NCBI RefSeq assembly: GCF_044704955.1
Contig: NC_091996.1
Span: 17,856,001 to 17,920,000 of the forward strand
DNA from: Pristiophorus japonicus
Taxonomy: Eukaryota
DNA: 64,000 bases
Direction: 5' to 3'
Each line of letters starts with the position of its first letter. The stretch's first letter is position 1. A program made the position numbers and the translations under genes. The notes under the pieces are model-generated. The model searched no databases, was not told where the DNA came from, and saw only the letters and a list, made by a program, of their open reading frames with translations. Positions 15,640 to 63,049 of this stretch are shown here, piece after piece.

Positions 15640-18600
15640 ACCTCTGGGCCTCCCGCTGCCGAGTGCTTTGCTCCCTTGCACCCCGCTGATTTTGGATTCG
15701 GCTCCAAACTGCGTTTCCAACCTCTGTCCGCTCACAGCCCTCATCAGGGAAGGTAAGTGATTGGCTGATGGATTGGTAAGTATCTCCCTTTCTCTTTTAT
15801 AATCAGATAAGTTTAAATTAGAGGGATGGCAGGGCAGCTCAGTCCTGTGGAGTGCATATCCTGCGACATGTGGGAAGTTCTGGACGCTTTGCGCAGCCTA
15901 GACAACCATGTGTGCAGGAGGTGTCTCCAGCTTCAACTACTCGAGCTCCGCGTTTCGGAGCTTGAGCAGTGGCTTGATTCACTATGGTGCATCCACGAAG
16001 CTGAGAGCTACGTGGATAGCATGTTTCAGGAGGTGCTCACCCCGCAGCTTAAAAGCGTGCAGGCAGAGGGGCAGTGGGTGACTACCAGACGGAGGAAGCA
16101 CACTCGGCAGGTAGTGCAGGAGTCCCCCCCGAGACCATCTCGCTTTCCAACTGATATTCTCTTTTGAGCATTGGTGAGGGTGATGGTGCCTCTGGGGAGT
16201 GCAGCCAGAGCCAAGTCCAAGGCACCATGGGTGGCTCAGCTGCACAAGGGGGAGAATAAAAAAGCTATACTGGTGGGGGGGTTCAATAGTTAGGGGAATA
16301 GAGAGGCTTTTCTGCGGCCGTAGACGTGACTCCAGGATGGTATGGTGCCTCCCTGGTGCCAGGGTCAAGGATGTCACAGAGCGGATGCAGAACATTCTGG
16401 GGCGGGGAGGGGGGTGGGGGGGAGGGAGAGGGTGAACAGCTAGAGGTCGTAGTCCATATCGGGACCAATTACATAGGTAGAAAGAAGGGATGAGGTCTTG
16501 CAGGCAGAATTTATGGAGCTAGGAGAAAAATTAAAGGGTTGGACCTCAAAGATAGTAATCGCCGAGTTACTACCGGTGCTACGAGCTAATAAGTACAAGA
16601 ATAGAAGGATAGAGAGGATGAACGCGTGGCTGGAGAGTTGATGCAGGAGGGAGGGCTTTAAATTCCTGAGGCATTGGGACCGCTTCTGGGGGAGATGGGA
16701 CCTGTACAAATCGGACGGGATGCACTTCAACAGCGCCGGGACCAATATCCCTGTGGGGAGTTTTGCTAGTGCTGTTGGGTGAGTTTAAACTAGCTTGGCA
16801 GGGGGATGGGAACCCGAGAACAAATTCAATAGGGAAGGAAATAAAACGGAAATTGCAAAGCAAGAATGTAGAAAGTGAATTTGTAAGACAGAGGAAACAA
16901 GGATTAGTAAGTAGTAATTAAGGAGGTCTTCCTGTGCTAAATGGTATATACTTCAATGCAAGGAGTATTGCAAATAAGGCGGATGAGCTGAGCGTACAGG
17001 TAGACACTTGGCAGTATGACATTTTAGCTATTACAGAGACATGGCTGAAAGAGGGGCAGGTTTGACAGCTCTTTACAGGATTTTTAGACAGGATGGCAGG
17101 GAGGGGTCGTGGTATTGATTAAAGAAACTATTACAGCTGTGAGGAGGGATGATATGTTAGAGGGATCATCAAACTGAAAAATAAAAAAGGGGCGATCACA
17201 TTGCTGGGCGTGTATTATAGACCCCCAACAATGGGTGGGAGATAGAGGAGCAAATCTGTAGGCAAATTAGTGAAGTCCAAAAACCATAGGGCAGTAATAG
17301 TTGGGGATTTCAACTATCCTAATATTGATTGGGACAGATATAGTGTGAAGGATATAGAGGGTGCGGAATTCCTAAAATGCATTCCAGAGAACTTTTTTAG
17401 TCAGTATGTAACAAGCCTAACACGGGAGGGGGCGGTTCTGGATTTCGTTTTGGGGAATGAAGCTGGGCAGGTGGAAGGGGTATCAGTGGAAGAGCACTTG
17501 GGTGCCAGTGACCATAATTCAGTCAGATTCAAAGTAGTTATGGATAAGGACAACGATAGACAACAATTTCCCCAAAGTCACAAATTGGGGAAAAGCTAAC
17601 TTTGCTAAGTTGAGAAGCGATTTGGCCATAGTGGACTGGAAACAGCTACTTGAAGGTAAGTCAGTGTCGGAACAGTGGGAGGCATTCAAGGATAAGATCC
17701 GGAGGGCTCAGGCCAAACATGTGCCCTTAAAGAAAAAGGGTGGGAATAACAATTCTAGAGCACCCTGGATGTCTAGGGACTTAAAGGGGAGGATAAAGAA
17801 AAAAATGGAAGCTTATGTCATATACCGACGGCTAAATACTGTAGAATCTCTGGAGGAATATAAGAAGTTCAGAGGTAAAATTAAAAAGGATATTAGGAAT
17901 GTTAAGAGAGAGCATGAAATATTATTGGCAAGTAAAATCAAGAAAAACCCAAAGATGTTCTATAAATATATTAAGAGCAAGAGGATAACTAAAGAAAGGG
18001 TAGGGCCTATTAGAGACCACAAGGGTAATGTGTGTGTGGAGGCGGAAGATGTGGGTATTGTTCTTAATGAATACTTTGCGACTGTTTTCACAAAGGAAAG
18101 AGGCAATGCAGATACTGCTATCGAGGAGGAGTGTGAAATTCTAAATGAAATAGACATAGTGAGAGAGGAGGTATTGGGGGGGTTTGGCAGCTTTGAAAGT
18201 GGATAAGTCCCCAGGCCCGGGCTGTTGAGCGAAGCAAGAGAGGAAATAGCAGAGACTTTGACCATCATTTTCCTGACCTCTTTGGATTCAGGCATAGTGC
18301 CAGAGGACTGCTAATGTGGTACCCTTGTTTAAGAAGGGAGAAAGAGATAGGCCGAGTAATTACAAGCCTGTCAGCCTAACCTCAGTGGTGAGAAAATTAC
18401 TGGAAAAATTGCTGAAGGACAGGATAAATCTACATTTAGAAAGACAAGGATTAATCAGGGACAGTCAGCACGGATTTGTTAAGGGAAGATCATGTTTGAC
18501 TAATCTGATTGAATTTTTCGAGGAGGTAACCAAGAGGGTCGATGAGGGCAGTGCGTACGATGTAGTGTATATGGACTTTAGCAAAACTTTTGATAAGGTC

Positions 18601-20060: not shown

Positions 20061-20957
20061 ACCTCTATCTTCCAGCACTATTCCCATATCCATTAATTCC
20101 CTTAGTTCCCAAAAATGTATCAACCTCTGTCTTGAATATATTCAGAGACTCAGCATCCATAGCTCTCTGGGGTAGAGAATTCCAAAGATTCACAACCCTT
20201 TGAGTGAAGAAATTTCTCCTCATCTCAGTCTTAAATGGCCGACCCCTTATTCTGAGACTGTGACCTTGTGTTCTAGATTCCCCAGCCAGGGGAAACATTT
20301 TCTCTGCATTAACCCTGTCAAGCCCCTTAAGAATTTTATATGTTTCAATTAGAACACCTCTCATTCTTCTAAATTCGAGGGAATATAAGCCGAATCTACT
20401 CAATCTCTCCTCGTAAGGCAATCCCCTCATCCCAGGAACCAGTCTAGTGAACCTTTGTTGCACTCCCTCGAAGGCAAATATGTATTTCCTTAGGTAAGGA
20501 GACCAGAACTGTACACAGTACTCCATGTGTGGCCTTACCAATGCCCTGTATAATTGTAGTAAGACTTCTCCACTCTTGTACTCTAATCCCTTAAGAACAA
20601 AAGCTAACATACCATTTGCTTTCCTAATTGCGTGCAGTATCTGCATGTTAACTTTCTGTGATTCATGTACAAGGACACCTAGTCCCTTTTTGTCATGTAT
20701 CCTACATGGCTACTGTTGGTACTATCGCAAGGTGTGCCACCAGAGGGCACAGCAGTGTGAAACTTGTAGGTTACCTGTACAGGTGTGCTTAGCCGAGTAT
20801 AAAAGGCAGGCCACCAGGTGTGATCCTCACTCTGGAGTTAACGAATAAAGGACGAAGGTCACTACAGTTCAAGTACAACACATTGCCTCGTGGAGTCATT
20901 ACTCGAGCATCTAAGGACACAACAATTGGCGACGAGATTATGAAATTTCACGCGAAA

Positions 20958-22163
20958 ATGGCTACTCTTGGTACGTTGCAGCAGTTCACCGATGGTGATG
21001 ATTGGGACGCCTTTGTGGAGAGGCTCGAACTTTTCTTCACAGCAAACGACCTGGCAGGAGACGACCCGGCCACACTGGCTGATAAGTGCAGAGCTATCTT
21101 GCTAACCAGTTGTGGGCCCACCATCTATGGCCTCATCAGGGACTTGCTGGCAACAGCGAAGACAACGACCAAGACATACAAGGAGCTCGTAACCCTGATC
21201 TATGAGCAACTCAAACCCAAGGAGAGCATCCTCACAGCCAGACACCGGTTCTATACCCACCGACCACCCGAAGGCCAGGAATTCGCAAAGTACGCCGCAG
21301 ACCTCAGAAGGTTGGCGGCACCGTGCGAGTTTGGCACCCACCTCAACGAAGCAATGACATTTTTGTCATTGGAATTGGCCATGAGGGCCTTCTTCATAAG
21401 CTACTGTGGGCGGATATCACAGTCACACTGCAGAAGACCATCTCTGTGAGCCAGTCATTCATGACCTCGACCTGCGGCTCTAGGCAGATGACTCTCCCTC
21501 AGGACTCAAACCCGGCAGGTACTGTGCACAGAGTGGCACCGTTTAGAGACTGGACTGTAGAGCGCAAACCCTCTCAGGAAAGAGAGAACAGGCCCACAAG
21601 TTCCTTAACTCAGAGTCCGCTGAGAAGGGCTAATCGAGTAGCACCATGCTAGCGTTGCGGAGGGAATAACAGAGCGCACCAGTGCCATTTAAAGGCTGCA
21701 GCACAAAGGGCCACCTCCAGCGAATGTGTAAGAGAAATATGACTCACTATGTCGATGAAGAGTCTGTAGATGGCCAGGAATCCAGGGTGGATTATGACTC
21801 GATAGGCAGAGAGACAGCCCAGCCCCATGGGGAGGTACATAGCATGTTTACCTGCACCACCGAGTGTTCCCCGCTGAAGATGGAAGTCGAGATAGATGGC
21901 ATTCCAGTCTTTACGGAAGTGGGCACAGGGGCGAGCCAGTCAGTGCTGAATCAAGAAGCCTTTGAGTGGCTATGGGACAATCAAGCTGAACGACCCAAGT
22001 TGGTCCCGGTTCAGGCAAAGCTGCGCACCTACACCAATGAAATTGTCCCAGTCGTTGGTAGCGCGAATGTAAAGTTACTCCATGATGGCGCGGTGCACAG
22101 GTTACCTCTGTGGATTGTTGCAGGTGATGGACCAACGCTGCTCGGCAGAAGGTGGATGAAGAA
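20958..22163 (+). pseudogene. Decayed gag (two CCHC-like knuckles) and aspartic protease of the LTR element
   Basis: DWDAFVERLELFFTAN...AILLTSCG...ARHRFY...YAADLRRLAAPCEFG; knuckle remnants C*RCGG..HQC and GCSTKGHLQRMC; protease EVGTGASQSV (DTG changed to GTG) and GPTLLGRRW. Frameshifted. Confidence 0.85.
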
Positions 22164-22800
22164 ACATAGAAACATAGAAAATAGGTGCAGGAGTAGGCCA
22201 TTCGGCCCTTCTAGCCTGCACCGCCATTCAATGAGTTCATGGCTGAACATTCAACTTCAGTACCCCATTCCTGCTTTCTCGCCATACCCCTTGATCCCCC
22301 TAGTAGTAAGGACCTCATCTAACTCCTTTTTGAATATATTTAGTGAATTGGCCTCAACAACTTTCTGTGGTAGAGAATTCCACAGGTTCACCACTCTCTG
22401 GGTGAAGAAGTTCCTCCGCATCTCGGTCCTAAATGGCTTACCCCTTATCCTTAGACTGTGACCTCTGGTTCTGGACTTCCCCAACATTGGGAACATTCTT
22501 CCTGCATCTAACCTGTCTAACCCGGTCAGAATTTTAAATGTTTCTTTGAGGTCCCCTCTCATTCTTCTGAACTCCAGTGAATACAAGCCCAGTTGATCCA
22601 GTCTTTCTTGATAGGTCAGTCCCGCCATCCCGGGAATCAGTCTGGTGAACCTTCGCTGCACTCCCTCAATAGCAAGAATGTCCTTCCTCAGGTTAGGAGA
22701 CCAAAACTGTACACAATACTCCAGGTGTGGCCTCACCAATGCCCTGTACAACTGTAGCAACACCTCTCTGCCCCTGTACTCAAATCCCCTTGCTATGAAA
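22164..22800 (-). mobile_element. Young CR1 3' fragment nested in the LTR element
   Basis: ORF 22257..22841 is almost identical to the C-termini of ORFs 34404..37364 and 56472..57107; (catagaaa)n tail. Splits the protease C-terminal region. Confidence 0.93.
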
Positions 22801-33702: not shown

Positions 33703-34401
33703 GTGGAGCCCAACAGGAAGAGCAGTGCAAGAAAGATAGTGCAGGAGTCCCCTGTGGTCATCCCCCTGCAAAACAGATACACTGCTTTGAGTACTGTTGG
33801 GGAGGATGACTCATCAGGGGAGGGCAGCAGCAGCCAAGTTCATGGCACCGTAGGTGGCTCTGCTGCAAAGGAGGGCAGGAAAAAGAGTGGGAGCGCGATA
33901 GTGATAGGGGATTCGATGGTGAGGGGAATAGATAGGCGTTTCTGCGGACGCAACCGAGACTCCAGGATGGTATGTTGCCTCCCTGGTGCAAGGGTCAAGG
34001 ATGTCTCGGAGCGGGTGCAGGACATTCTGAAATGGGAGGGAGAACAGCCAGTTGTCGTGGTGCACATTGGTACCAACGACATAGGTAAAAAAAGGGATGA
34101 GGTCCTACGAAAAGAATTTAAGGAGCTAGGAGCTAAATTAAAAAGTAGGACCTCAAAAGTAGTAATCTCGGGATTGCTACCAGTGCCACGTGCTAGTCAG
34201 AGTAGGAATCGCAGGATAGCGCAGATGAATACATGGCTTGAGCAGTGGTGCAGCAGGGAGGGATTCAAATTCTTGGGGCATTGGAACCGGTTCTGGGGGA
34301 GGTGGGACCAGTACAAACCGGACGGTCTGCACCTGGGCAGGTCCGGAACCAATGTCCTAGGGGGAGTGTTTGCTAGTGCTGTTGGGGAGGAGTTAAACTA
34401 A
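33703..34401 (+). CDS. CR1 ORF1 C-terminal half (SGNH/GDSL esterase domain)
   Basis: GDSMVRG (block I), CLPGARV, HIGTNDI (block III) and DGLHL (block V). The N-terminal zinc finger seen at 15826 is missing. Confidence 0.9.
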   Translation: MEPNRKSSARKIVQESPVVIPLQNRYTALSTVGEDDSSGEGSSSQVHGTVGGSAAKEGRKKSGSAIVIGDSMVRGIDRRFCGRNRDSRMVCCLPGARVKDVSERVQDILKWEGEQPVVVVHIGTNDIGKKRDEVLRKEFKELGAKLKSRTSKVVISGLLPVPRASQSRNRRIAQMNTWLEQWCSREGFKFLGHWNRFWGRWDQYKPDGLHLGRSGTNVLGGVFASAVGEELN

Positions 34402-34403
34402 TA

Positions 34404-37364
34404 TTGCAGGGGGATGGGAACCTATACAGGGAGACAGAGGGAGACAAAAAGGAGGCAAAAGCAAAAGACAGAAAGGAGATGAGGAAAAGTGGAGGGCAGA
34501 GAAACCCAAGGCAAAGAACAAAAAGGGCCACTGTACAGCAAAATTCTAAAAGGACAAAGGGTGTTAAAAAAGCAAGCCTGAAGGCTTTGTGTCTTAATGC
34601 AAGGAGTATCCGCAATAAGGTGGATGAATTAATTGTGCAAATAGATGTTAACAAATATGTTGTGATTGGGATTACGGAGACGTGGCTCCAGGATGATCAG
34701 GGCTGGGAACACAACATCCAGGGGTATTCAACATTCAGGAAGGATAGAATAAAAGGAAAAGGAGGTGGGGTAGCATTGCTGGTTAAAGAGGAGATTAATG
34801 CAATAGTTAGGAAAGACATTAGCTTGGATGATGTGGAATCTATATGGGTAGAGCTGCAGAACACTAAAGGGCAAAAATCGTTAGTGGGAGTTGTGTACAG
34901 ACCTCCAAACAGTAGTAGTGATGTTGGGGAGGGCATCAAACAGGAAATTAGGAGTGCATGCAATAAAGGTACAGCAGTTATAATGGGTGACTTTAATATG
35001 CACATAGATTGGGCTAGCCAAACTGGAAGCAATACGGTGGAGGAAGATTTCCTGGAATGCATAAGGGATGGTTTTCTAGACCAATATGTCGAGGAACCAA
35101 CTAGGGGGGAGGCCATCTTAGACTGGGTGTTGTGTAATGAGAGAGGATTAATTAGCAATCTCATTGTGCGAGGCCCCTTGGGGAAGAGTGACCATAATAT
35201 GGTGGAATTCTGCATTAGGATGGAGAATGAAACAGTTAATTCAGAGACCATGGTCCAGAACTTAAAGAAGGGTAACTTTGAAGGTATGAGGCATGAATTG
35301 GCTAAGATAGATTGGCTAATGATACTTAAGGGGTTGACTGTGGATGGGCAATGGCAGACATTTAGAGAACGCATGGATGAATTACAACAATTGTACATTC
35401 CTGTCTGGCGTAAAAATAAAAAAGGGAAGGTGGCTCAACCGTGGCTATCTAGGGAAATCAGGGATAGTATTAAAGCCAAGGAGGTGGCATACAAATTGGC
35501 CAGAAATAGCAGCGAACCTGGGGACTGGGAGAAATTTAGAACTCAGCAGAGGAGGACAAAGGGTTTGATTAGGGTAGGGAAAATGGAGTACGAGAAGAAG
35601 CTTGCAGGGAACATTAAGGCGGATTGCAAAAGTTTCTATAGGTATGTAAAGAGAAAGAGGTTAGTAAAGACAAACGTAGGTCCCCTGCAGTCAGAATCAG
35701 GGGAAGTCATAACGGGGAACAAAGAAATGGCAGACCAATTGAACAAGTACTTTGGTTCAGTATTCACTAAGGAGGACACAAACAACCTTCCGGATATAAA
35801 AGTGGTCAGAGGGTCTATTAAGGAGGAGGAACTGAGGGAAATCTTTATTAGTCGGGAAATTGTGTTGGGGAAATTGATGGGATTGAAGGCCGATAAATCC
35901 CCAGGGCCTGATGGACTGCATCCCAGAGTACTTAAGGAGGTGGCCTTGGAAATAGCGGATGCATTGACAGTTATTTTCCAACATTCCATTGACTCTGGAT
36001 CAGTTCCTATCGAGTGGAGGGTAGCCAATGTAACCCCACTTTTTAAAAAAGGAGGGAGAGAGAAAGCAGGGAATTATAGACCGGTCAGCCTGACCTCAGT
36101 AGTGGGTAAAATGATGGAATCAATTATTAAGGATGTCATAGCAGCGCATTTGGAAAATGGTGACATGATAGGTCCAAGTCAGCATGGATTTGTAAAAGGG
36201 AGATCATGCTTGACAAATCTTCTGGAATTTTTTGAGGATGTTTCCAATAAAGTGGACAAAGGAGTACCAGTTGATGTGGTATATTTGGACTTTCAGAAGG
36301 CTTTCGACAAGGTCCCACACAGGAGATTAATGTGCAAAGTTAAAGCACATGGGATTGGGGGTAGTGTGCTGACGTGGATTGAGAACTGGTTGTCAGACAG
36401 GAAGCAAAGAGTAGGAGTAAATGGGTACTTTTCGGAATGGCAGGCAGTGACTAGTGGGGTACCGCAGGGTTCTGTGCTGGGGCCCCAGCTGTTTACATTG
36501 TACATTAATGATTTAGACGAGGGGATTAAATGTAGTATCTCCAAATTTGCGGATGACACTAAGTTGGGTGGCAGTGTGAGCTGCGAGGAGGATGCTATGA
36601 GGCTACAGAGTGACTTGGATAGGTTAGGTGAGTGGGCAAATGCGTGGCAGATGAAGTATAATGTGGATAAATGTGAGGTTATCCACTTTGGTGGTAAAAA
36701 CAGAGAGACAGACTATTATCTGAATGGTGACAGATTAGGAAAAGGGAAGGTGCAACGAGACCTGGGTGTCATGGTACATCAGTCATTGAAGGTTGGCATG
36801 CAGGTACAGCAGGCGGTTAAGAAAGCAAATGGCATGTTGGCCCTCATAGCGAGGGGATTTGAGTACAGGGGCAGGGAGGTGTTGCTACAGTTGTACAGGG
36901 CTTTGGTGAGGCCACACCTGGAGTATTGTGTACAGTTTTGGTCTCCTAACTTGAGGAAGGACATACTTGCTGTTGAGGGAGTGCAGCGAAGATTCACCAG
37001 ACTGATTCCCGGGATGGTGGGACTGACCTATCAAGAAAGACTGAATCAACTGGGCTTGTATTCACTGGAGTTCAGAAGAGTGAGAGGGGACCTCATAGAA
37101 ACGTTTAAGATTCTGACGGGTTTGGACAGGTTGGATGCAGGAAGAATGTTCCCAATGTTGGGGAAGTCCAGAACCAGGGGTCACAGTCTAAGGATAAGGG
37201 GTAAGCCATTTAGGACCGAGATAAGGAGAAACTTCTTCACCCAGAGAGTGGTGAACCTGTGGAATTCTCTACCACAGGAAGTAGTTGAGGCCAATTCACT
37301 AAATATATTCAAAAGGGAGTTAGATGAAGTCCTTACTACTCGGGGATCAAGGGGTATGGCGTGA
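34404..37364 (+). CDS. CR1 ORF2: APE endonuclease plus reverse transcriptase, 986 codons open
   Basis: CLNARSIRNK, ITETWL, GDFN and SDHN (EN); [23 protein letters not shown] and FADDTK (RT). Only a frameshift in the last codons (TRGSRGMA vs TRGIKGYGEKAGMGY in sister copies). The ORF-track start is TTG, not ATG. Confidence 0.95.
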   Translation: MQGDGNLYRETEGDKKEAKAKDRKEMRKSGGQRNPRQRTKRATVQQNSKRTKGVKKASLKALCLNARSIRNKVDELIVQIDVNKYVVIGITETWLQDDQGWEHNIQGYSTFRKDRIKGKGGGVALLVKEEINAIVRKDISLDDVESIWVELQNTKGQKSLVGVVYRPPNSSSDVGEGIKQEIRSACNKGTAVIMGDFNMHIDWASQTGSNTVEEDFLECIRDGFLDQYVEEPTRGEAILDWVLCNERGLISNLIVRGPLGKSDHNMVEFCIRMENETVNSETMVQNLKKGNFEGMRHELAKIDWLMILKGLTVDGQWQTFRERMDELQQLYIPVWRKNKKGKVAQPWLSREIRDSIKAKEVAYKLARNSSEPGDWEKFRTQQRRTKGLIRVGKMEYEKKLAGNIKADCKSFYRYVKRKRLVKTNVGPLQSESGEVITGNKEMADQLNKYFGSVFTKEDTNNLPDIKVVRGSIKEEELREIFISREIVLGKLMGLKADKSPGPDGLHPRVLKEVALEIADALTVIFQHSIDSGSVPIEWRVANVTPLFKKGGREKAGNYRPVSLTSVVGKMMESIIKDVIAAHLENGDMIGPSQHGFVKGRSCLTNLLEFFEDVSNKVDKGVPVDVVYLDFQKAFDKVPHRRLMCKVKAHGIGGSVLTWIENWLSDRKQRVGVNGYFSEWQAVTSGVPQGSVLGPQLFTLYINDLDEGIKCSISKFADDTKLGGSVSCEEDAMRLQSDLDRLGEWANAWQMKYNVDKCEVIHFGGKNRETDYYLNGDRLGKGKVQRDLGVMVHQSLKVGMQVQQAVKKANGMLALIARGFEYRGREVLLQLYRALVRPHLEYCVQFWSPNLRKDILAVEGVQRRFTRLIPGMVGLTYQERLNQLGLYSLEFRRVRGDLIETFKILTGLDRLDAGRMFPMLGKSRTRGHSLRIRGKPFRTEIRRNFFTQRVVNLWNSLPQEVVEANSLNIFKRELDEVLTTRGSRGMA

Positions 37365-38769
37365 AAGCAGGAAGTGGGTACTGAAGTTTCATGTTCAGCC
37401 ATGAACTCGTTGAATGGCGGTGCAGGCTAGAAGGGCTGAATGGCCTGCTCCTGCACCTATTTTCTATGTTTCTATGTTTCTATATTATCTGCCATGTTTG
37501 GTGGGTAATTGAAATTGGCAGGTAATTTGAATTCTTCACATACAGCAATACCCTCGGAACAAGCAACGAAAGAAGCACTCTGCATTTTTATGCGCCAAAA
37601 AAGATGAAATACAAACGACAAAAGGAAGTTGTGCAGTTATTCAATACCTCTGGCATTTCTTTTTCCTGCGAAAATGACTGAACAATGGTGGTTCCACAGT
37701 ATGTCCACTTAAATTAAGGCAAGCACAAAGCTGTACACTTGGGTTATAGACTTGTGACCTTCGGAGCTTGCATTGTGTCAAAGCAGTGTATTTTGAGGTA
37801 GGGTGAAGTACTATTGGCTACAAGTCTGTTAGTAGTTGTAGCAATTTGAGGTGACGATTGAGGAGCTTTTGCTTAAATTATATTTTTTGGCTTTCGTGTA
37901 TTCGAACCAATTTGCTAAATAAGCCGAATGAAGGCTCTGGCATATCAGTATTGTATTTTCATGACCATAGATACGATCAACACATCATTTTTATAAAAGC
38001 AAAGTATTTTTAAACTTTCCATTTGGATGTGGCAGCAGACTTCATGGAGGCTGCAGTGCCTGTATTGTGCAAGAGATCAGAGAACAATAAGTTCAAGGCA
38101 AAGTTCACAGACAAACTTTAAAAATGTCCTTGCTCTAAATTGAAAGGCAAAATCTTGCTGTGTATTGGGATTAAGACACTGACAAAATTGTAGCGATTGG
38201 AGCCGACAGGCAGTCACACTGTCTGATATGAAAGGAAGTTTCATTGAGAATTTATCATCAGCTTGCTGGACTCTTCCTATTGTATCGCAGTCCACTGCCA
38301 AGATTTGTGCATGCAATTGTTCTAAGATGATGTGTGTTGTAAATCTGACGACAAACCCGGGAGCCAAGGTCTAACGGCATTTGAGGCGTAGCAACTACCC
38401 ATCCTGTTCTTTTTTTCTTTGTTTTCAGTTTTAAAATATATTAAATTCATCAGTAAAATTTTTTAAAAGATTTTAACTTGCCAGAAAGCTTTTCTGGATT
38501 GCTCAAAAACAATTTTGATTTTAGTCTTGCGCAATATTATTTTTCTCCCGGTGTATTTGAGGCCCTTTCAGTCTACGCCATTGTCACAGTAGAAGGCAGG
38601 CGGGTAATCTGTTTTTGGTACTCTGCAGTGGTTGCTACTCCATAACCGGAGTGTCCTCTGGTAAAACATGCCCTTTGGTTTTTAACAAGGGCTTAGCACA
38701 AGTGTAGAGTTCACCATGTGATGAGCGGTGGGGGTGACTCCTGTTCCGTGGAACAATCAGCTAATAAAA

Positions 38770-40530: not shown

Positions 40531-43500
40531 AGTGGTGCACATTGGTACCAACGATACAGGTAAAAAAAAAAGGGATGAGGTCCTACGAGACGAATTTAAG
40601 GAGCTGGGATCTAAATTAAAACGTAGGACCTCAAAAGTAGTGATCTCGGGATTGCTACCAGTGCCACAAGCTAGTCAGAGTAGGAATCGCAGGCTAGCTC
40701 AGATGAATACGTGGCTTGAGCAGTGGTGCAGCAGGGAGGGATTCAAATTCCTGGGGCATTGGAACAGGTTCTGGGGGAGGTGGGACCAGTACAAACCGGA
40801 CAGTCTGCACCTGGGCAGGACCGGAACCAATATCCTAGGGGGAGTGTTTGCTAGTGCTGTTGGGGAGGAGTTAAACTAATATGGCAGGGGGATGGGAACC
40901 AATGCAGGGAGACAGAGGGAAACAAAATGGAGACAAAAGCAAAAGACAGAAAGGAGATGAGTAAAAGTGGAGGGCAGAGAAACCCAAGGCAAAAAACAAA
41001 AAGGGCCACTTTACAGCAAAATTCTAAAGGGTCAAAGTGTAATAAAAAGGCAAGCATGAAAGCTCGGTGCCTCAATGCAAGGAGTATTCGGAACCCAGGA
41101 GAAGGCTCTGAGCTAGTTAGAGTGGGTGAGAGCTCAGATGAACAGGGCCCCAAGAAAGAATGCAAAAGGCAGGAGGCAACAGAGCAGAGTAGCACTGGGG
41201 TAAGTGTAAACCACAAGGTGATAGGAAGGGACAATATGTATGAATATAAAGGGGCTGCTGGAGGGGTCAAAACTAAAAATCATGGTTTAAAAACTAGTAT
41301 TAAAACACTCTACCTAAACGCACGCAGCATTCGAAATAAAGTAAATGAGTTGACGGCACAAATCATTACAAATGGGTATGATTTGATGGCCATTACAGAA
41401 ACGTGGTTGCAGAGTGGCCAAGACTGGGAATTAAACATACAGGGGTATCTGACAATTCGGAAAGATAGACAAGAAGGGAAAGGAGGTGGGGTAGCTCTGT
41501 TAATAAAGGATGATATCAGGGCAGTTGTGAGAGACGATATTGGCTCTAATGAACAAAATGTTGAATCATTGTGGGTGGAGATTAGAGATAGTAAGGGGAA
41601 AAAGTCACTGGTGGGCATAATTTATAGGCCCCCAAATAATAACTTCACGGTGGGGCGGGCAATAATCAAGGGAATAATGGAGGCATGTGAAAAAGGAATG
41701 GCAGTAATCATGGGGGATTTTAACCTACATATCGATTGGTCAAATCAAATCGCACGGGGTAGCCTTGAGGAGGAATTCATAGAATGCATACGGGATTGTT
41801 TCTTAGAACAGTATGTTACAGAACCTACAAGGGAGCAAGCTATCTTAGATCTGGTCCTGTGTCATGAGACAGGAATAATAAACTATCTCCTAGTAAAAGA
41901 TCCTCTCGGAATGAGTGATCACAGTATGGTTGAATTTGTAATACAGATTGAGGGTGAGGAAGTAGTGTCTCAAATGAGCGTACTATGCTTAAACAAAGGG
42001 GACTAAAGTGGGATGAGGGCAGAGTTGGCTAAAGTAGACTGGGAACACAGACTAAACGGTGGCACAATTGAGGAACAGTGGAGGACTTTTAAGTGGCTCT
42101 TTCATATTGCTCAACAAAAATATATTCCAGTGAAAAAGGGCGGTAAGAGAAGGGATAACCAGCATAACCGTGCATAACCAAGGAAATAAAGGAGAGTATC
42201 AGATTAAAAACCAATGTGTATAAGGTGGCCAAGGTTAGTGGGAAACTAGAAGACTGGAAAATTTTAAACGACAGCAAAGAATGACTAAGAAAGCAATAAA
42301 GAAAGGAAAGATAGATTACAAAAGTAAACTTGCGCAAAATATAAAAACAGATAGTAAAAGCTTTTACCGATATATAAAACGGAAAAGAGTGACTAAAGTA
42401 AATGTTGGTCCCTTAGAAGATGAGAAGGGGATTTAATAATGGGAAATGTGGAAATGGCTGAGACCTTAAACAATTATTTTGCTTCGGTCTTCACAGTGGA
42501 AAACACAAAAACCATGCCAAAAATTGCTGGTCACGGGAATGTGGGAAGGGAGGACCTTGAGATAATTACTATCACTAGGGGGGTAGTGCTGAATAGTCTA
42601 ATGGGACTCAAGGTAGACAAGTCCCCTGGTCCGGATGAAATGCATCCCAGGGTATTAAAAGAGATGGCGGAAGTTATAGCAGATGCATTCGTTATAATCT
42701 ACCAAAATTCTCTGGACTCTGGGGAGGTACTAGCGGATTGGAAAGCAGCTAATGTAACGCCTCTGTTTAAAAAAAAAAGCGGGGCAGACAAAAGGCAGGG
42801 AACTATAGGCCGGTTAATTTAACATCTGTAGTGGGGAAAATGCTTGAAGCTATCATTAAGGAAGAAATAGCGGGACATCTAGATAGGAATAGTGCAATCA
42901 AGCAGACGCAATGTGGATTCATGAAGGGGAAATCATGTTTAACTAATTTACTGGAATTCTTTGAGGATATAACGAGCATGGTGGATAGAGGTGTACCGAT
43001 GGATGTGATGTATTTAGATTTCCAAAAGGCATTCGGTTACTGCAGAAGATAAAGATACGCGGAGTCAGAGGAAATGTATTAGCATGGATCGAGAATTGGC
43101 TGGCTAACAGAAAGCAGAGAGTCAGGATAAATGGGTCCTTTTCGGGTTGGAAATCGGTGGTTAGTGGTGTGCCACAGGGATCGGTGCTGGGACCACAACT
43201 GTTTACAATATACATAGATGACCTGGAAGAGGGGACAGAGTGTAGTGTAACAAAATTTGCAGATGACACAAAGATTAGTGGGAAAGCGGGTTGTGTAGAG
43301 GACACAGAGAGGCTGCAAAGAGATTTAGATAGGTTAAGCGAATGGGCTAAGGTTTGGCAGATGGAATACAATGTCGGAAAATGTGAGGTCATCCACCTTG
43401 GGGGGGGAAAAAAAACAGTAAAAGGGAATATTATTTGAATGGGGAGAAATTACAACATGCTGCGGTGCAGAGGGACCTGGGGGTCCTTGTGCATGAATCC

Positions 43501-59870: not shown

Positions 59871-62373
59871 TTTAAAAAGGTGAAAATTGTAGAATCAACC
59901 ATGGCCATGTTCTTCAACGGCCGTAGGGTTGCAAAGATGTGAGAGCCAGTTGTATGTCAGCTGCGGGAGACGCATGGTTCAGAGAGACCAGAAGTAGTGA
60001 AAATGGTTCTCGGAGGGGAGATGAAGAATAAAGAATAACCCTAAAACTTGATTGTGGTGAGCTAGACAATCGAAACGAGAACTATTGCATTCTTTAGGAG
60101 AGGGCCACATTCCCCATGTTTAATGAGGAACCGTCTGTGTCTCCTCAGCAACTTTAATATGTACATGTTGTACACTGGAACAAGGACATCGGGTCTAGGC
60201 TCGCAGGTTGGAGCTGGACTGTAGATGGCCCTTAATTTCTAACCTGTTACTGTAGCTGAGTGCAGCCCTCCAGGTGTTGGGACCATATGCTGTTGTTGAT
60301 ATAAGATGTCCTTCAGCTGCATTCACACACATTTTGTTTCTTAAAAATAGCCATTGCCCTTAAAACTCATTTAAACTTGCATTTGCGTCACAGTTTCTAA
60401 AAGATGAGCTGTAGTAAGCAGAAAGGGATCAGCTGTTAAAATGTCCTCGTGTTGTGTGGAAGAAAGTCGGCAACATCCATAGGAATAGAGAAGTGGTTAC
60501 GAGGTAAGCGTCTGCATCAATACCAGCTGCCGTTGAGGCTCGAACACATTCTGGGTTTTTTCTATCTGGTTCCCACAGTATATTTTTCTCTGAGTAGGAA
60601 GGGTTAGTTCTATAATTTTCTTTTCTTTTAAAACCTTGGGTATGATTGAGTTTCAGATAGAAGATTGAATATTTTCAACCGGTTATGATGAAGTATTTTC
60701 TTGCTGAAATTCTTTTTATGGTTATGTAATTTAGACAGTATTGATGTGCATTGTTGTATCTCCCTAGCTGTGTTGCATGTCTTAAACTTACATCTGCACC
60801 GCTCTTCTGTGAGTATGATGAGTACCGTAATGGTGGTGGGCAGGGGTTAGTGTATCTATTTCCATGCGATGAGCCAAGGGCTATGAAACATTATACAATA
60901 ATATGTTGTTGGTTGGACACTAGTCACATTGAATGTTGTGTGGGAAAATCTGGCTCAGTTTATTGAAGTGAAGTCTTGGCAACTGTAGCTGGATTGAATT
61001 AGCAGAAGAATTGCTAACTCACTAATAAACAAGCTTATCCATCTCAGCAACTGTTTGGCATTACATTGCCAAATTTAAAGTTGCTTTATATAATAGTGTA
61101 ATTCATGTTGAAGTCTTGTGGGGACTGCTCAATTTAACCATCAGCTTGGATTTTGAATTTTAATGTCTATTTTGGGTAAACTTTCACAGCAATGCTTATT
61201 TTTGTCTTTGTTTTTGAATGTTGCTGTATAGCCTTGGGATTTCTTGAACGATGTGAATTGGGGATTGTTGAACCTGTAAAAATACAAGGTTCTTTTTCCC
61301 CAACCACTTGGGTTTTATTTGATGTGCAATTGATTGTCGGGCAGGTCTGTCGTAGAAGCACTGCATGTTGGCAATGGAAAGAGTGAAGCTGTGTAGCGAA
61401 AAGTTAAGTTGGTAAAGTGCAATTTCTCAATTTTTAACATTTTGAACACATTTTAGTTTGTATTGTTGGGATTGCTTTTCTGTGTATGTTACCCGAGAAC
61501 GATCTCCAGATTCACATACCTGGTATTTGCAATCCTGTTGGTTTCTATGGCAGGGTGATAATTTCATGTGCCATTTGTCTTTACAGTAAAAAAAAATGAC
61601 GTGGTGTCTATCGGATATTTATACTAATCTAGCTTCATGGTGCAAATCTGCAAACAGGAGATTGTGCTTATTTTTCTGCCCATGTCAGAATAAAATCTCT
61701 GCATCATCTACATTGGGACAGTGTTTTTCCCCTCAAACCAGCTACAAAGTGTACAGTTGTGTAAATGAGGCTACGCTGTACCTCAATCATGGGAAAATGT
61801 TGATCTTAGGATTGTCTTTCACTTTGGAAAAAGAATCAAAGTCTATTCAGTAGCTCTCATAAACCCTTCTGGTAAGTTGAACTGAATGCATGTACAGAAG
61901 TTCTGTTGTTTCAAATAGCTCGCGCTTGAACTTATTCCAGACTCCAGGAGATCAGTGCCGTGTGAGAAAGAGGAGACTTTTGTTATCATTCTCACCAGCT
62001 GTGTGATTCATTCTCTGATTCTCTCAGGAGAATGAGTGTGTTTTGAATGTACTTGGAGCCCACTAGATAGACACTGAAATGTCAGAGTAATTTGCCAGGC
62101 TGCTATTTCTGAAAAGGAAACATCTTATTATTTTGTTTAAAGCATTTAAAACAACATTGTTTTTAAGTGCAGACTGTTCCATCAAATTGATTTCTGTCCT
62201 CCATTTTTCCATTTCCCACACTAGTTGTGGCCTTTGTAAGTAACATTGCCAATTAGCACTGAGCTGGGTTGTGCTATGGGCTCATGCTGAACAGGAAGTG
62301 GTCTGAGACTGTCTATAAACTTATTTCACATGGTACTCTTACAGCCAGTAAACAGGAAATGTTCATCCAATCA

Positions 62374-62727
62374 GTCAGGACTGGATTTGTACATGGGTCC
62401 CAGAAGTGAAAGGTCAGGACTGGATTTGTGCACAGGTCCCAGAGGTGGAAGGTCAGGACTGGATTTGTACACAGGTCACAGAGGTGGAAGGTCAGGACTG
62501 GATTTGTGCACAGGTCACAGTGGTGGAAGGTCAGGACTGGATTTGTGCACAGGTCCCAGAGGTGGAAGGTCAGGACTGGGTTTGTGCACAGGTCCCAGAG
62601 GTGGAAGGTCAGGATTGGATTTGTACGCAGGTCACAGAGGTGAAAGGTCAGGACTGGATTTGTGCACCGGTCCCAGAGGTGGAAGGTCAGGACTGGATTT
62701 GTACGCAGGTACCAGAGGTGGAAGGTC
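62374..62727. repeat. 39-bp minisatellite, about 9 copies
   Basis: Unit TCAGGACTGGATTTGTGCACAGGTCCCAGAGGTGGAAGG, head-to-tail with no spacers. Confidence 0.95.
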
Positions 62728-63049
62728 TATGACTGATCCACTGAGCTGTCTAGTCCCTCTTTAATATCCATGTTATAGTCCGAATGTACCTTGTGGGTTT
62801 CTAATTTCTGTGAAATTCAGTCACAGGTTGTGCACCTGAATAAGTTGCGTCTAAATATTCAGATGAAATTAAAGCATGACCTATTTACCACATTTTATTG
62901 CAATTTCTCCTACCACAACACTGGAACAGTAGCTTTAATATCTTGAGCTATGGTGTATCCAGTTCAGGTACCTGCATGTGTTTCACTGTGGTCTGATAAA
63001 TCCACAGTTCCCCATGGACTGGGAAAGGAAAGAAATAAAAAGGTAAAAG

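Follow-up and report, generated by a model that had tools for sequence, protein, structure and literature searches.

The ORF1/ORF2 junction of a young CR1 LINE of Pristiophorus japonicus very probably carries a programmed -1 ribosomal frameshift site, at which, judging from the comparison of relatives, a slippery heptamer would yield an ORF1-ORF2 fusion. The junction lies in the window (the whole stretch of 64,000 nt that was analysed), where the following features were located:

33704..37487, + strand: young CR1 LINE copy, 5'-truncated, carrying the junction (3' end approximate, at a short tandem repeat tail)
33704..34401, + strand: ORF1 remnant, SGNH/GDSL esterase (PF13472, E 2.8e-13), with the C-terminus G-E-E-L-N-stop
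33759..33771, + strand: 5' arm of a candidate long-range duplex, in ORF1 codons V-I-P-L-Q, ~630 nt upstream
34377..37364, + strand: ORF2 in the -1 frame, with basic linker, APE endonuclease and reverse transcriptase (PF03372, PF14529, PF00078)
34392..34398, + strand: slippery heptamer, reading G_TTA_AAC here, G_GGA_AAC in L063 and T_TTA_AAC in most relatives
34399..34401, + strand: ORF1 stop, adjoining the heptamer on its 3' side (TAA or TAG in relatives; 8 codons later in L084)
34404..34416, + strand: 3' arm of the candidate long-range 13-bp duplex, 5 nt past the heptamer, lineage-limited
34409..34418, + strand: conserved G-tract GGGGG-NN-GGG, beginning 10 nt past the heptamer, without a stable local fold
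40870..40896, + strand: second cassette (heptamer, stop, G-tract), of a sister subfamily
16784..16810, + strand: third cassette, decayed (T_TTA_AAC, TAG, G-tract), of a more distant family

The window copy starts at 33704, its 5' edge being set by blastn against five sister copies (identity 98.7-99.6%), and is 99.6% identical to L052; ORF1 in full-length sister copies forms frames of 316 codons. Since the window copy is 5'-truncated and the C-terminus of its ORF2 is altered by a small indel, it is a young but dead copy. The esterase-type ORF1 of vertebrate CR1 was identified (PF13472 above cut-off), in agreement with the description in the available part of PMC13343379, as were the APE endonuclease and reverse transcriptase in ORF2 (PF03372, PF14529 and PF00078) and two further CR1 hallmarks, the short tandem-repeat 3' tail and the 5' truncation. 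Compared by eye, the junction hardly differs from that of the published ScyCan_CR1-1a consensus. By its domains, tail and consensus likeness, the element is an esterase-type CR1 LINE and the junction its ORF1/ORF2 boundary.

Most of the layout proposed in the first-pass annotation was read directly from the DNA: ORF1 ends GAG TTA AAC TAA, with G_TTA_AAC (34392-34398) in the ORF1 register, and the frame of ORF2 is exactly -1, running from 34377 through the heptamer for 995 codons without a stop, its first ATG (34479) being codon 30 counted from the heptamer. The CR1 at 40531 repeats this arrangement, with G_TTA_AAC at 40870-40876 and matching register and order. For the family at 15640, the reported T_TTA_AAC was found at 16784-16790 but is out of register in this decayed copy, in which ORF1 stops just before the heptamer and the -1 linker is interrupted by a stop; in L250, a sister of the decayed copy, the site is in register. 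The peptide ascribed to the -1 frame of the three copies, L(I/A)(W/L)QGDGN, also matched. N-TTAAAC occurs 51 times on both strands of the 64,000-nt window, and the motif by itself is not rare; what goes beyond chance is the position, register and conservation of the heptamer rather than its occurrence. Genome-wide, the 35-nt junction occurs 21,646 times.

Of the ORF1 relatives, which come from sharks, rays, a teleost, Xenopus, turtles, lizards and birds, 153 terminate at the expected position, 145 of these in L-N. At the DNA level the terminal Leu codon was TTA in all 15 clusters having that Leu, while the control Leu of DGLHL was TTA in 2 of 18, and TTA accounts for 14 of the 106 Leu codons within the window element. 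Some of the 19 DNA clusters are decayed singletons belonging to one family, so that independent lineages number around ten. At greater distance, 91 representatives (50% level, expected place) ended in L-N (52), G-N (11), K-N (3) or otherwise: 15 of the 39 non-LN ends were compatible with XXY-YYZ codons (versus a background of 6%), and 24 of the 91 did not fit a heptamer; another 39 of 130 distant ORF1s end elsewhere than the expected place. By the codons open to it, the preceding residue covaries with the L-N, G-N and K-N ends as X_XXA_AAC demands: before L-N, 17 residues had pyrimidine-ending codons only versus one with purine-ending only, and before G-N/K-N the counts were zero versus nine (Fisher 2e-6, kinship ignored). 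Such swaps are seen in DNA as well, L063 reading G_GGA_AAC-TAG followed by 825 open -1 codons, and L084 carries T_TTA_AAC in register, 8 codons upstream of its stop. In published consensuses, T_TTA_AAC-stop was read by eye at the junction in 17 of 20 motif matches (alligator, crocodile, chimaera, sharks, rays, coelacanth, bowfin and bullfrog), a count over motif matches, as the PMC13343379 supplement gives the first 400 letters per consensus and yields no denominator. The site takes the X_XXY_YYZ form in the zero-frame register, strictly in the relatives and as the relaxed arterivirus form G_TTA_AAC in the window. A search of viral contigs gave no relative, and nine weak loci in prokaryote genome contigs were excluded from the analysis.

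Because TTA was found in 15 of 15 clusters against 2 of 18 at the control Leu, and because the L-N, G-N and K-N ends covary with the residue before them, the junction signal looks RNA-level, not protein-level. One could argue that the L-N end and the Q/K-G-D/E-G start of the linker are kept for protein function and that the heptamer is incidental, given that the last esterase helix ends with L-N in almost every vertebrate member and that G-x-G recurs in the -1 frame. This argument is very improbable, being largely refuted by TTA fixation and preceding-residue covariation: conservation at the nucleotide level goes beyond the protein (TTA fixation, heptamer swaps, covariation), synonymous sites are fixed (TTA, and third-position G at +8, +11 and +14 in 15-17 of 19), Leu, Gly and Lys are chemically dissimilar yet all have XXA codons (TTA, GGA, AAA), and the -1 peptide is conserved upstream of any AUG, implying that it is translated.

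The -1 frame was open in all nine distant metagenome loci having the heptamer and a readable endonuclease start or motif, with linkers of 99-264 nt, and in 46 of the 56 young copies in which the motif was found; ORF2 identity between deep lineages is 28-46%. In old genomic copies, the endonuclease lay in -1 in 3 of 11 copies of an old family whose G run is unstable and in 6 of 12 from random stretches, a frequent loss of frame that we read as decay. Termination-reinitiation has been described for L1 and SART1: having finished ORF1, ribosomes start again at an AUG of the linker, or at a non-AUG codon, to give free ORF2p. It is the LINE norm according to the available parts of two reviews (PMC2881922, PMC10275272). 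Against frameshifting, the heptamer G_TTA_AAC of the window family is imperfect, and all 63 open linkers of that family have an AUG upstream of the endonuclease (at codon 30 in 56, at codon 20 only in 7). The same holds for 8 of the 9 distant loci; in L069 and L075 an in-frame AUG lies 2 nt past the ORF1 stop, and some bird-like loci have an AUG there. By a rough estimate, a Met in a linker of 35-85 codons is common by chance. In the remaining bird-like loci the codon in question is GTG, TCG or TGG; linker Met positions outside L061 are not homologous, and L061 has no Met upstream of the endonuclease Asn motif. The latter is not fatal to reinitiation, since L1 is said, in the portion of PMC5009743 consulted, to be independent of its AUG. 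In the 40870 copy the ATG at 40881 lies in the +1 frame rather than that of ORF2, and the SART1-type overlapping UAAUG stop-start is absent from the window junction, which reads TAATAT. Moreover reinitiation leaves unexplained the TTA fixation, the L/G/K swap with its covarying preceding codon, and the frame that stays open across 29-64 codons from heptamer to AUG. As the explanation of this junction it is unlikely, although the two processes could coexist.

It is hardly credible that the junction serves as a splice acceptor or an internal promoter and that ORF2 is translated from the spliced or subgenomic RNA so produced. CAG-G is present at 34407-34410, and two published shark consensuses have words like TTTAAACTA in their 5' UTR, but the junction has no polypyrimidine tract, the acceptor is not kept in bird-like loci or L061, and the G_GGA_AAC and K-N variants are incompatible with one DNA motif. 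No recurring splice-like joint was found at the junction in contigs of four presumed-RNA runs, a result silent on expression.

Comparative support for the -1 frameshift and ORF1-ORF2 fusion put forward by the first-pass annotation is strong (codon fixation, heptamer swaps and a kept -1 register). As distant relatives retain or swap the heptamer in register, ribosomes likely slip at the junction: the majority would terminate at TAA, giving ORF1p, and a minority, shifted back by one base on the heptamer, would continue into ORF2. The predicted product, at a low ratio to ORF1p, would consist of ORF1p, linker, endonuclease and reverse transcriptase (~1,300 residues), joined through the trans-frame sequence ...GEELN-LILQGDGN. 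Frameshifting would explain how the second protein is produced in CR1, a very abundant, major vertebrate element and the retrotransposon that predominates in birds, reptiles and sharks. The ORF2 start would then be currently misannotated, the active enzyme would include the esterase domain as well as the multimerising one, and the proportion of ORF1p to RT would be set the retroviral way; design of functional CR1 retrotransposition assays would benefit, and a new class of frameshift stimulator may be involved. The junction lends itself to a short, cheap reporter test.

For zebrafish ZfL2-1, stop-codon suppression, i.e., fusion by another route, was reportedly proposed by Kajikawa in 2012. Like CR1, ZfL2-1 is described as having an esterase ORF1 (PMC3905857, in part). 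In L1 and SART1, both bicistronic LINEs, translation of ORF2 requires that of ORF1 (PMC2881922, available part), and the product is free ORF2p, unlike the fusion proposed for CR1. Dictyostelium TRE5-A and TRE3-A are APE-type LINEs whose ORF2 is said to require a -1 frameshift; they differ from CR1 in clade and host, and the passage in question gives no heptamer, assay or esterase ORF1 (PMC5911963). In Penelope-like elements, non-LTR like CR1, a frameshift with a pseudoknot can split ORF1 from RT (PMC8557442, in part), but these are of another class (GIY-YIG endonuclease) with a pseudoknot stimulator. G_UU(A), U_UUA_AAC, G_GGA_AAC and A_AAA_AAC are given as shift sites in the accessible text of PMC5009743. 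The heptamers, register and -1 polymerase of arterivirus and coronavirus ORF1a/1b (equine arteritis virus G_UU(A)..., U_UUA_AAC) are as in CR1, whereas there a pseudoknot follows 5-9 nt downstream (PMC5009743, PMC8915115, both in part); in CR1 no local structure was found in most lineages, and the host of the site is a LINE. The review PMC3894237 treats the translation of LINE ORF2 as an open question, its parts 1-2 of 3 not offering frameshifting, and no earlier description of CR1 frameshifting was found in a literature search that did not reach several key papers.

The stimulator is the weakest step of the frameshift model. The G-rich block was confirmed: counted from the heptamer, its runs begin at +11, +18, +31 and +41, with loops of 2, 10 and 7 nt between them. 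Of 19 clusters, 14-17 had G at +11..+15 and 18 had it at +18, the first two runs being conserved and the third and fourth variable. A conserved G-quadruplex, as first suggested, was rejected: the three-tier pattern appeared in 1 of 10 junctions tested, with loops totalling 19 nt and a start at +11, whereas PMC3919603 puts the optimum at short loops and 6-8 nt. G-quadruplex stimulation of frameshifting declines as loops lengthen, up to 10 nt, in the available part of PMC3919603. The local fold at the window junction gave z -0.15, and stable local structure was absent in 6 of 8 junctions folded locally (L069 borderline, z -1.96). By analogy with arteriviruses, the G-tract 10 nt downstream may be a pause element bound by a protein, a reading we hold tentatively, at somewhat less than an even chance. 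The PRRSV nsp2 frameshift has a 10-nt spacer between slippery site and motif. Like CR1, it combines a slippery site with an unstructured conserved downstream motif, but that motif is C-rich (CCCANCUCC) and bound by PCBP and nsp1beta (PMC8915115, in part), whereas the CR1 motif is G-rich and known from sequence alone. Pairing of the G-tract at long range is a rather unlikely alternative; otherwise, the G-tract may act together with the adjacent stop codon.

The 13-bp inverted repeat (33759-33771/34404-34416) is the longest perfect one of the element; the sequence of its 5' arm varies among relatives, and pairing holds only in this shark lineage. As a general mechanism the upstream duplex was rejected, cognate arms not consistently outdoing swapped ones (top-ranked in 1 of 18) and the synonymous-codon null being beaten by 4 of 17 copies, all in two related shark families (4 further loci were without the anchor motif). 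No downstream long-range partner was found at a common position among 10 junctions. It is possible, though we lean against it, that CR1 has relied on -1 frameshifting from before the vertebrates radiated to make its RT within a Gag-Pol-like esterase-endonuclease-RT fusion, with a stimulator new to retroelements. This would be a single-stranded G-tract 10 nt downstream that is protein-bound or that, in this shark lineage, is clamped by a stretch of ORF1 lying 630 nt upstream, the latter serving as a built-in antisense oligonucleotide. In L084, an ordinary hairpin takes the place of the G-tract, 10 nt after the heptamer (z -4.8, with 0 of 200 shuffles as stable).

The ORF1/ORF2 junction of the CR1 LINE in the window is real and deeply conserved, and from its sequence it is likely a programmed -1 frameshift. 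The copy, 99.6% identical to a sister copy, encodes an SGNH esterase in ORF1 (closest named relative: a sawshark protein, 97%) and an APE endonuclease and reverse transcriptase in ORF2:

33704 to ~37487, + strand: CR1 LINE copy, 5'-truncated
34392-34398, + strand: slippery heptamer G_TTA_AAC, in ORF1 register, the end reading GAG TTA AAC TAA
34479, + strand: first ATG in the -1 (ORF2) frame, by frame reading

As the first-pass annotation had described, the heptamer sits in the zero-frame register before the ORF1 stop, and the ORF2 frame is -1, open from 34377 through the heptamer. This open frame measures 995 codons; the +1 frame is shut immediately at the junction. The copies of the cassette reported at 40870 and 16784 both match their description, the latter in decayed form. 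N-TTAAAC occurs 51 times within the window, thus the word by itself carries no meaning. A 35-nt junction pattern matched 21,646 places in the genome, and its reversed control none.

Conservation was assessed at loci anchored on the DGLHL motif, independently of the heptamer, the anchors being drawn from 140 own-genome sources (targeted or pattern-selected, and random) and from metagenome loci. Among 173 anchors with a stop within the locus, 123 had that stop 22-36 codons on plus a downstream endonuclease motif; these formed 19 clusters, several of them decayed singletons of the main family. The terminal Leu was TTA in all 15 clusters having it, versus 2 of 18 for control Leu. The other four comprised two early stops, L084 (a distant CR1-like element with T_TTA_AAC eight codons upstream of the ORF1 stop) and L063, a relative with the junction G_GGA_AAC-TAG (L063:1644-1653) and 825 open -1 codons, which stands for at least 11 protein clusters whose members end in G-N. 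Of 35 metagenome anchors, 19 lacked a heptamer-like word (most were remote esterases, with no downstream endonuclease found) and seven lacked a readable endonuclease motif; in all nine remaining the -1 frame was open over linkers spanning 99 to 264 nt, so the -1 register is kept across these relatives. ORF2 identity between deep lineages was 28-46%. In old own-genome copies the frame was frequently broken (one old family: 3 of 11 in -1). Contigs of four other organisms aligned across the junction to ~34435 and then dropped away, and in them the G at 34392 was mostly T.

The C-terminal ends of ORF1 proteins carry the same signature. Two protein searches gave 164 homologues, 158 of which extend to the C-terminal region; 153 stop within 4 residues of the expected place, 145 of these ending in L-N. 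In a wider profile search of 50%-identity clusters (best 150 examined), 130 extend to the region and 91 terminate as expected: L-N 52, G-N 11, K-N 3 and others 25, the relevant Leu, Gly and Lys codons being TTA, GGA and AAA. XXY-YYZ codons fit 15 of the 39 non-LN ends, versus 6% of internal dipeptides. In another protein group K-N occupies the equivalent column and the stop lies ~10 codons further on; L/G/K-N fell inside the expected position range in 66 of 113 anchor-motif proteins versus 8.5% background. The heptamer's first base is the last base of the codon preceding the pair. Ahead of L-N, 17 residues had only pyrimidine-ending codons, against a single residue with purine-ending codons alone, that of the window's own family; ahead of G-N or K-N the counts were zero and nine (p 2e-6, kinship uncorrected). 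Judged from these codon sets, the preceding residue covaries as the heptamer's first base demands, bearing out the proposed conservation of an X_XXA_AAC register. Building the profiles from sequences that end in L-N biases them somewhat towards L-N, but this bias fails to explain the covariation.

Some predicted proteins or frames (proteins P0021 and P0025, locus L046) continue from ORF1 into ORF2 in frame, probably as single copies with an indel or a gene-model splice where the two ORFs join. Two CR1 ORF1 proteins on short contigs, P0007 and P0051, are labelled bacterial SGNH hydrolases (Pseudomonas, Klebsiella), labels that likely reflect host DNA in those records.

We infer slippage, fusion and a stimulator from this anatomy: a ribosome with UUA in the P site and AAC in the A site would most likely pause on meeting the G-tract, or at the neighbouring stop codon, then slip back one base, joining ~315 residues of ORF1p to 988 of ORF2. 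Reinitiation at a linker start codon is possible in most lineages, since every open linker of the window's family holds a Met (63/63; codon 30 in 56, codon 20 only in 7) and, at some bird-like loci, an ATG in frame follows the ORF1 stop by two bases. However, reinitiation leaves the heptamer unaccounted for, and L061, a distant locus, has its first Met eight codons beyond the endonuclease Asn motif; Met positions in other lineages spread over codons 5 to 67.

As for a stimulator of the predicted frameshift, the proposed conserved downstream element stood as a G-tract: GGGGG (+11 to +15) and GG(G) (+18) are kept, even at the third positions of -1-frame codons. A G-quadruplex, also proposed, was rejected as a conserved stimulator, its three-tier pattern being satisfied at 1 of 10 junctions. 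Local folding was unremarkable at the window junction (z -0.15) and five others and borderline at the related locus L069; the sole strong fold was that of L084 (hairpin at +11, z -4.8), which lacks the G-tract. At L084:2029-2075, T_TTA_AAC is followed 10 nt downstream by a 14-bp hairpin containing the ORF1 stop, which reads as a textbook frameshift cassette and would be the easiest to assay. In the old own-genome family L143-L172, the G-tract has grown in many copies to long, variable G runs, shifting the ORF2 frame.

The window G-tract also lies inside a 13-bp stretch that is perfectly complementary to 33759-33771 in ORF1; the two form the longest inverted repeat in the element (3,785 nt). 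This pairing was noticed post hoc; 4.3% of 300 shuffles gave any such repeat, and none gave an arm of at least 11 starting 4-12 nt past the heptamer. The pairing beat a synonymous-codon null in four of 17 copies (z -2.6 to -3.5). All four belong to two related shark families; copies of a third shark family, bird-like loci and distant loci did not beat it. Cognate arm pairs scored about the same as swapped pairs. In three other organisms the ORF1 arm differs at two places (one G-U compatible, one pair-breaking), with no compensatory change among them. The putative long-range pairing is a lead for this shark lineage only.

A full-text literature search found no report of CR1 frameshifting; early CR1 papers fall outside its scope, and a prior mention is possible. 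"Frameshift", "slippery", "ribosom" and "overlap" do not occur in the main text of a 2026 CR1 survey (PMC13343379). In its supplement, 17 of 20 motif matches (a motif-led count by eye over the first 400 letters per consensus) fell on the ORF1/ORF2 junction of a CR1 or Crack consensus; the hosts were crocodilians, chimaera, sharks, rays, coelacanth, bowfin, bullfrog and a teleost. The portions consulted of PMC4316615, PMC4120745, PMC3905857 and PMC1965478 yielded nothing on CR1 ORF2 translation, and those of PMC5009743, which mentions HeT-A, TART and L1, no CR1 passage. A -1 frameshift, as predicted here for CR1, is stated for Dictyostelium TRE5-A and TRE3-A (PMC5911963), and a frameshift for some Penelope-like elements (PMC8557442). 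The predicted recoding is of a known kind, in a major element for which no description was found; the stimulator is unusual and a candidate only.

Elsewhere in the window, two versions of the linker/endonuclease start follow each other in tandem, in frame, in the second CR1 copy (41060-41330), with two NARSIRN motifs 243 nt apart; of 90 further copies inspected, 2 share this layout. A heptamer-like AT-rich word immediately upstream of the third element's ORF1 start (15810-15835) is possibly due to composition; published shark consensus sequences have similar words in their 5' UTRs (PMC13343379, supplement). By eye, 20793-22461 holds decayed ORFs, split by a CR1 fragment, that resemble gag and protease from a Gypsy-like LTR element. 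A tandem array of ~30-nt units, with several frames open, lies at 62291-62764.
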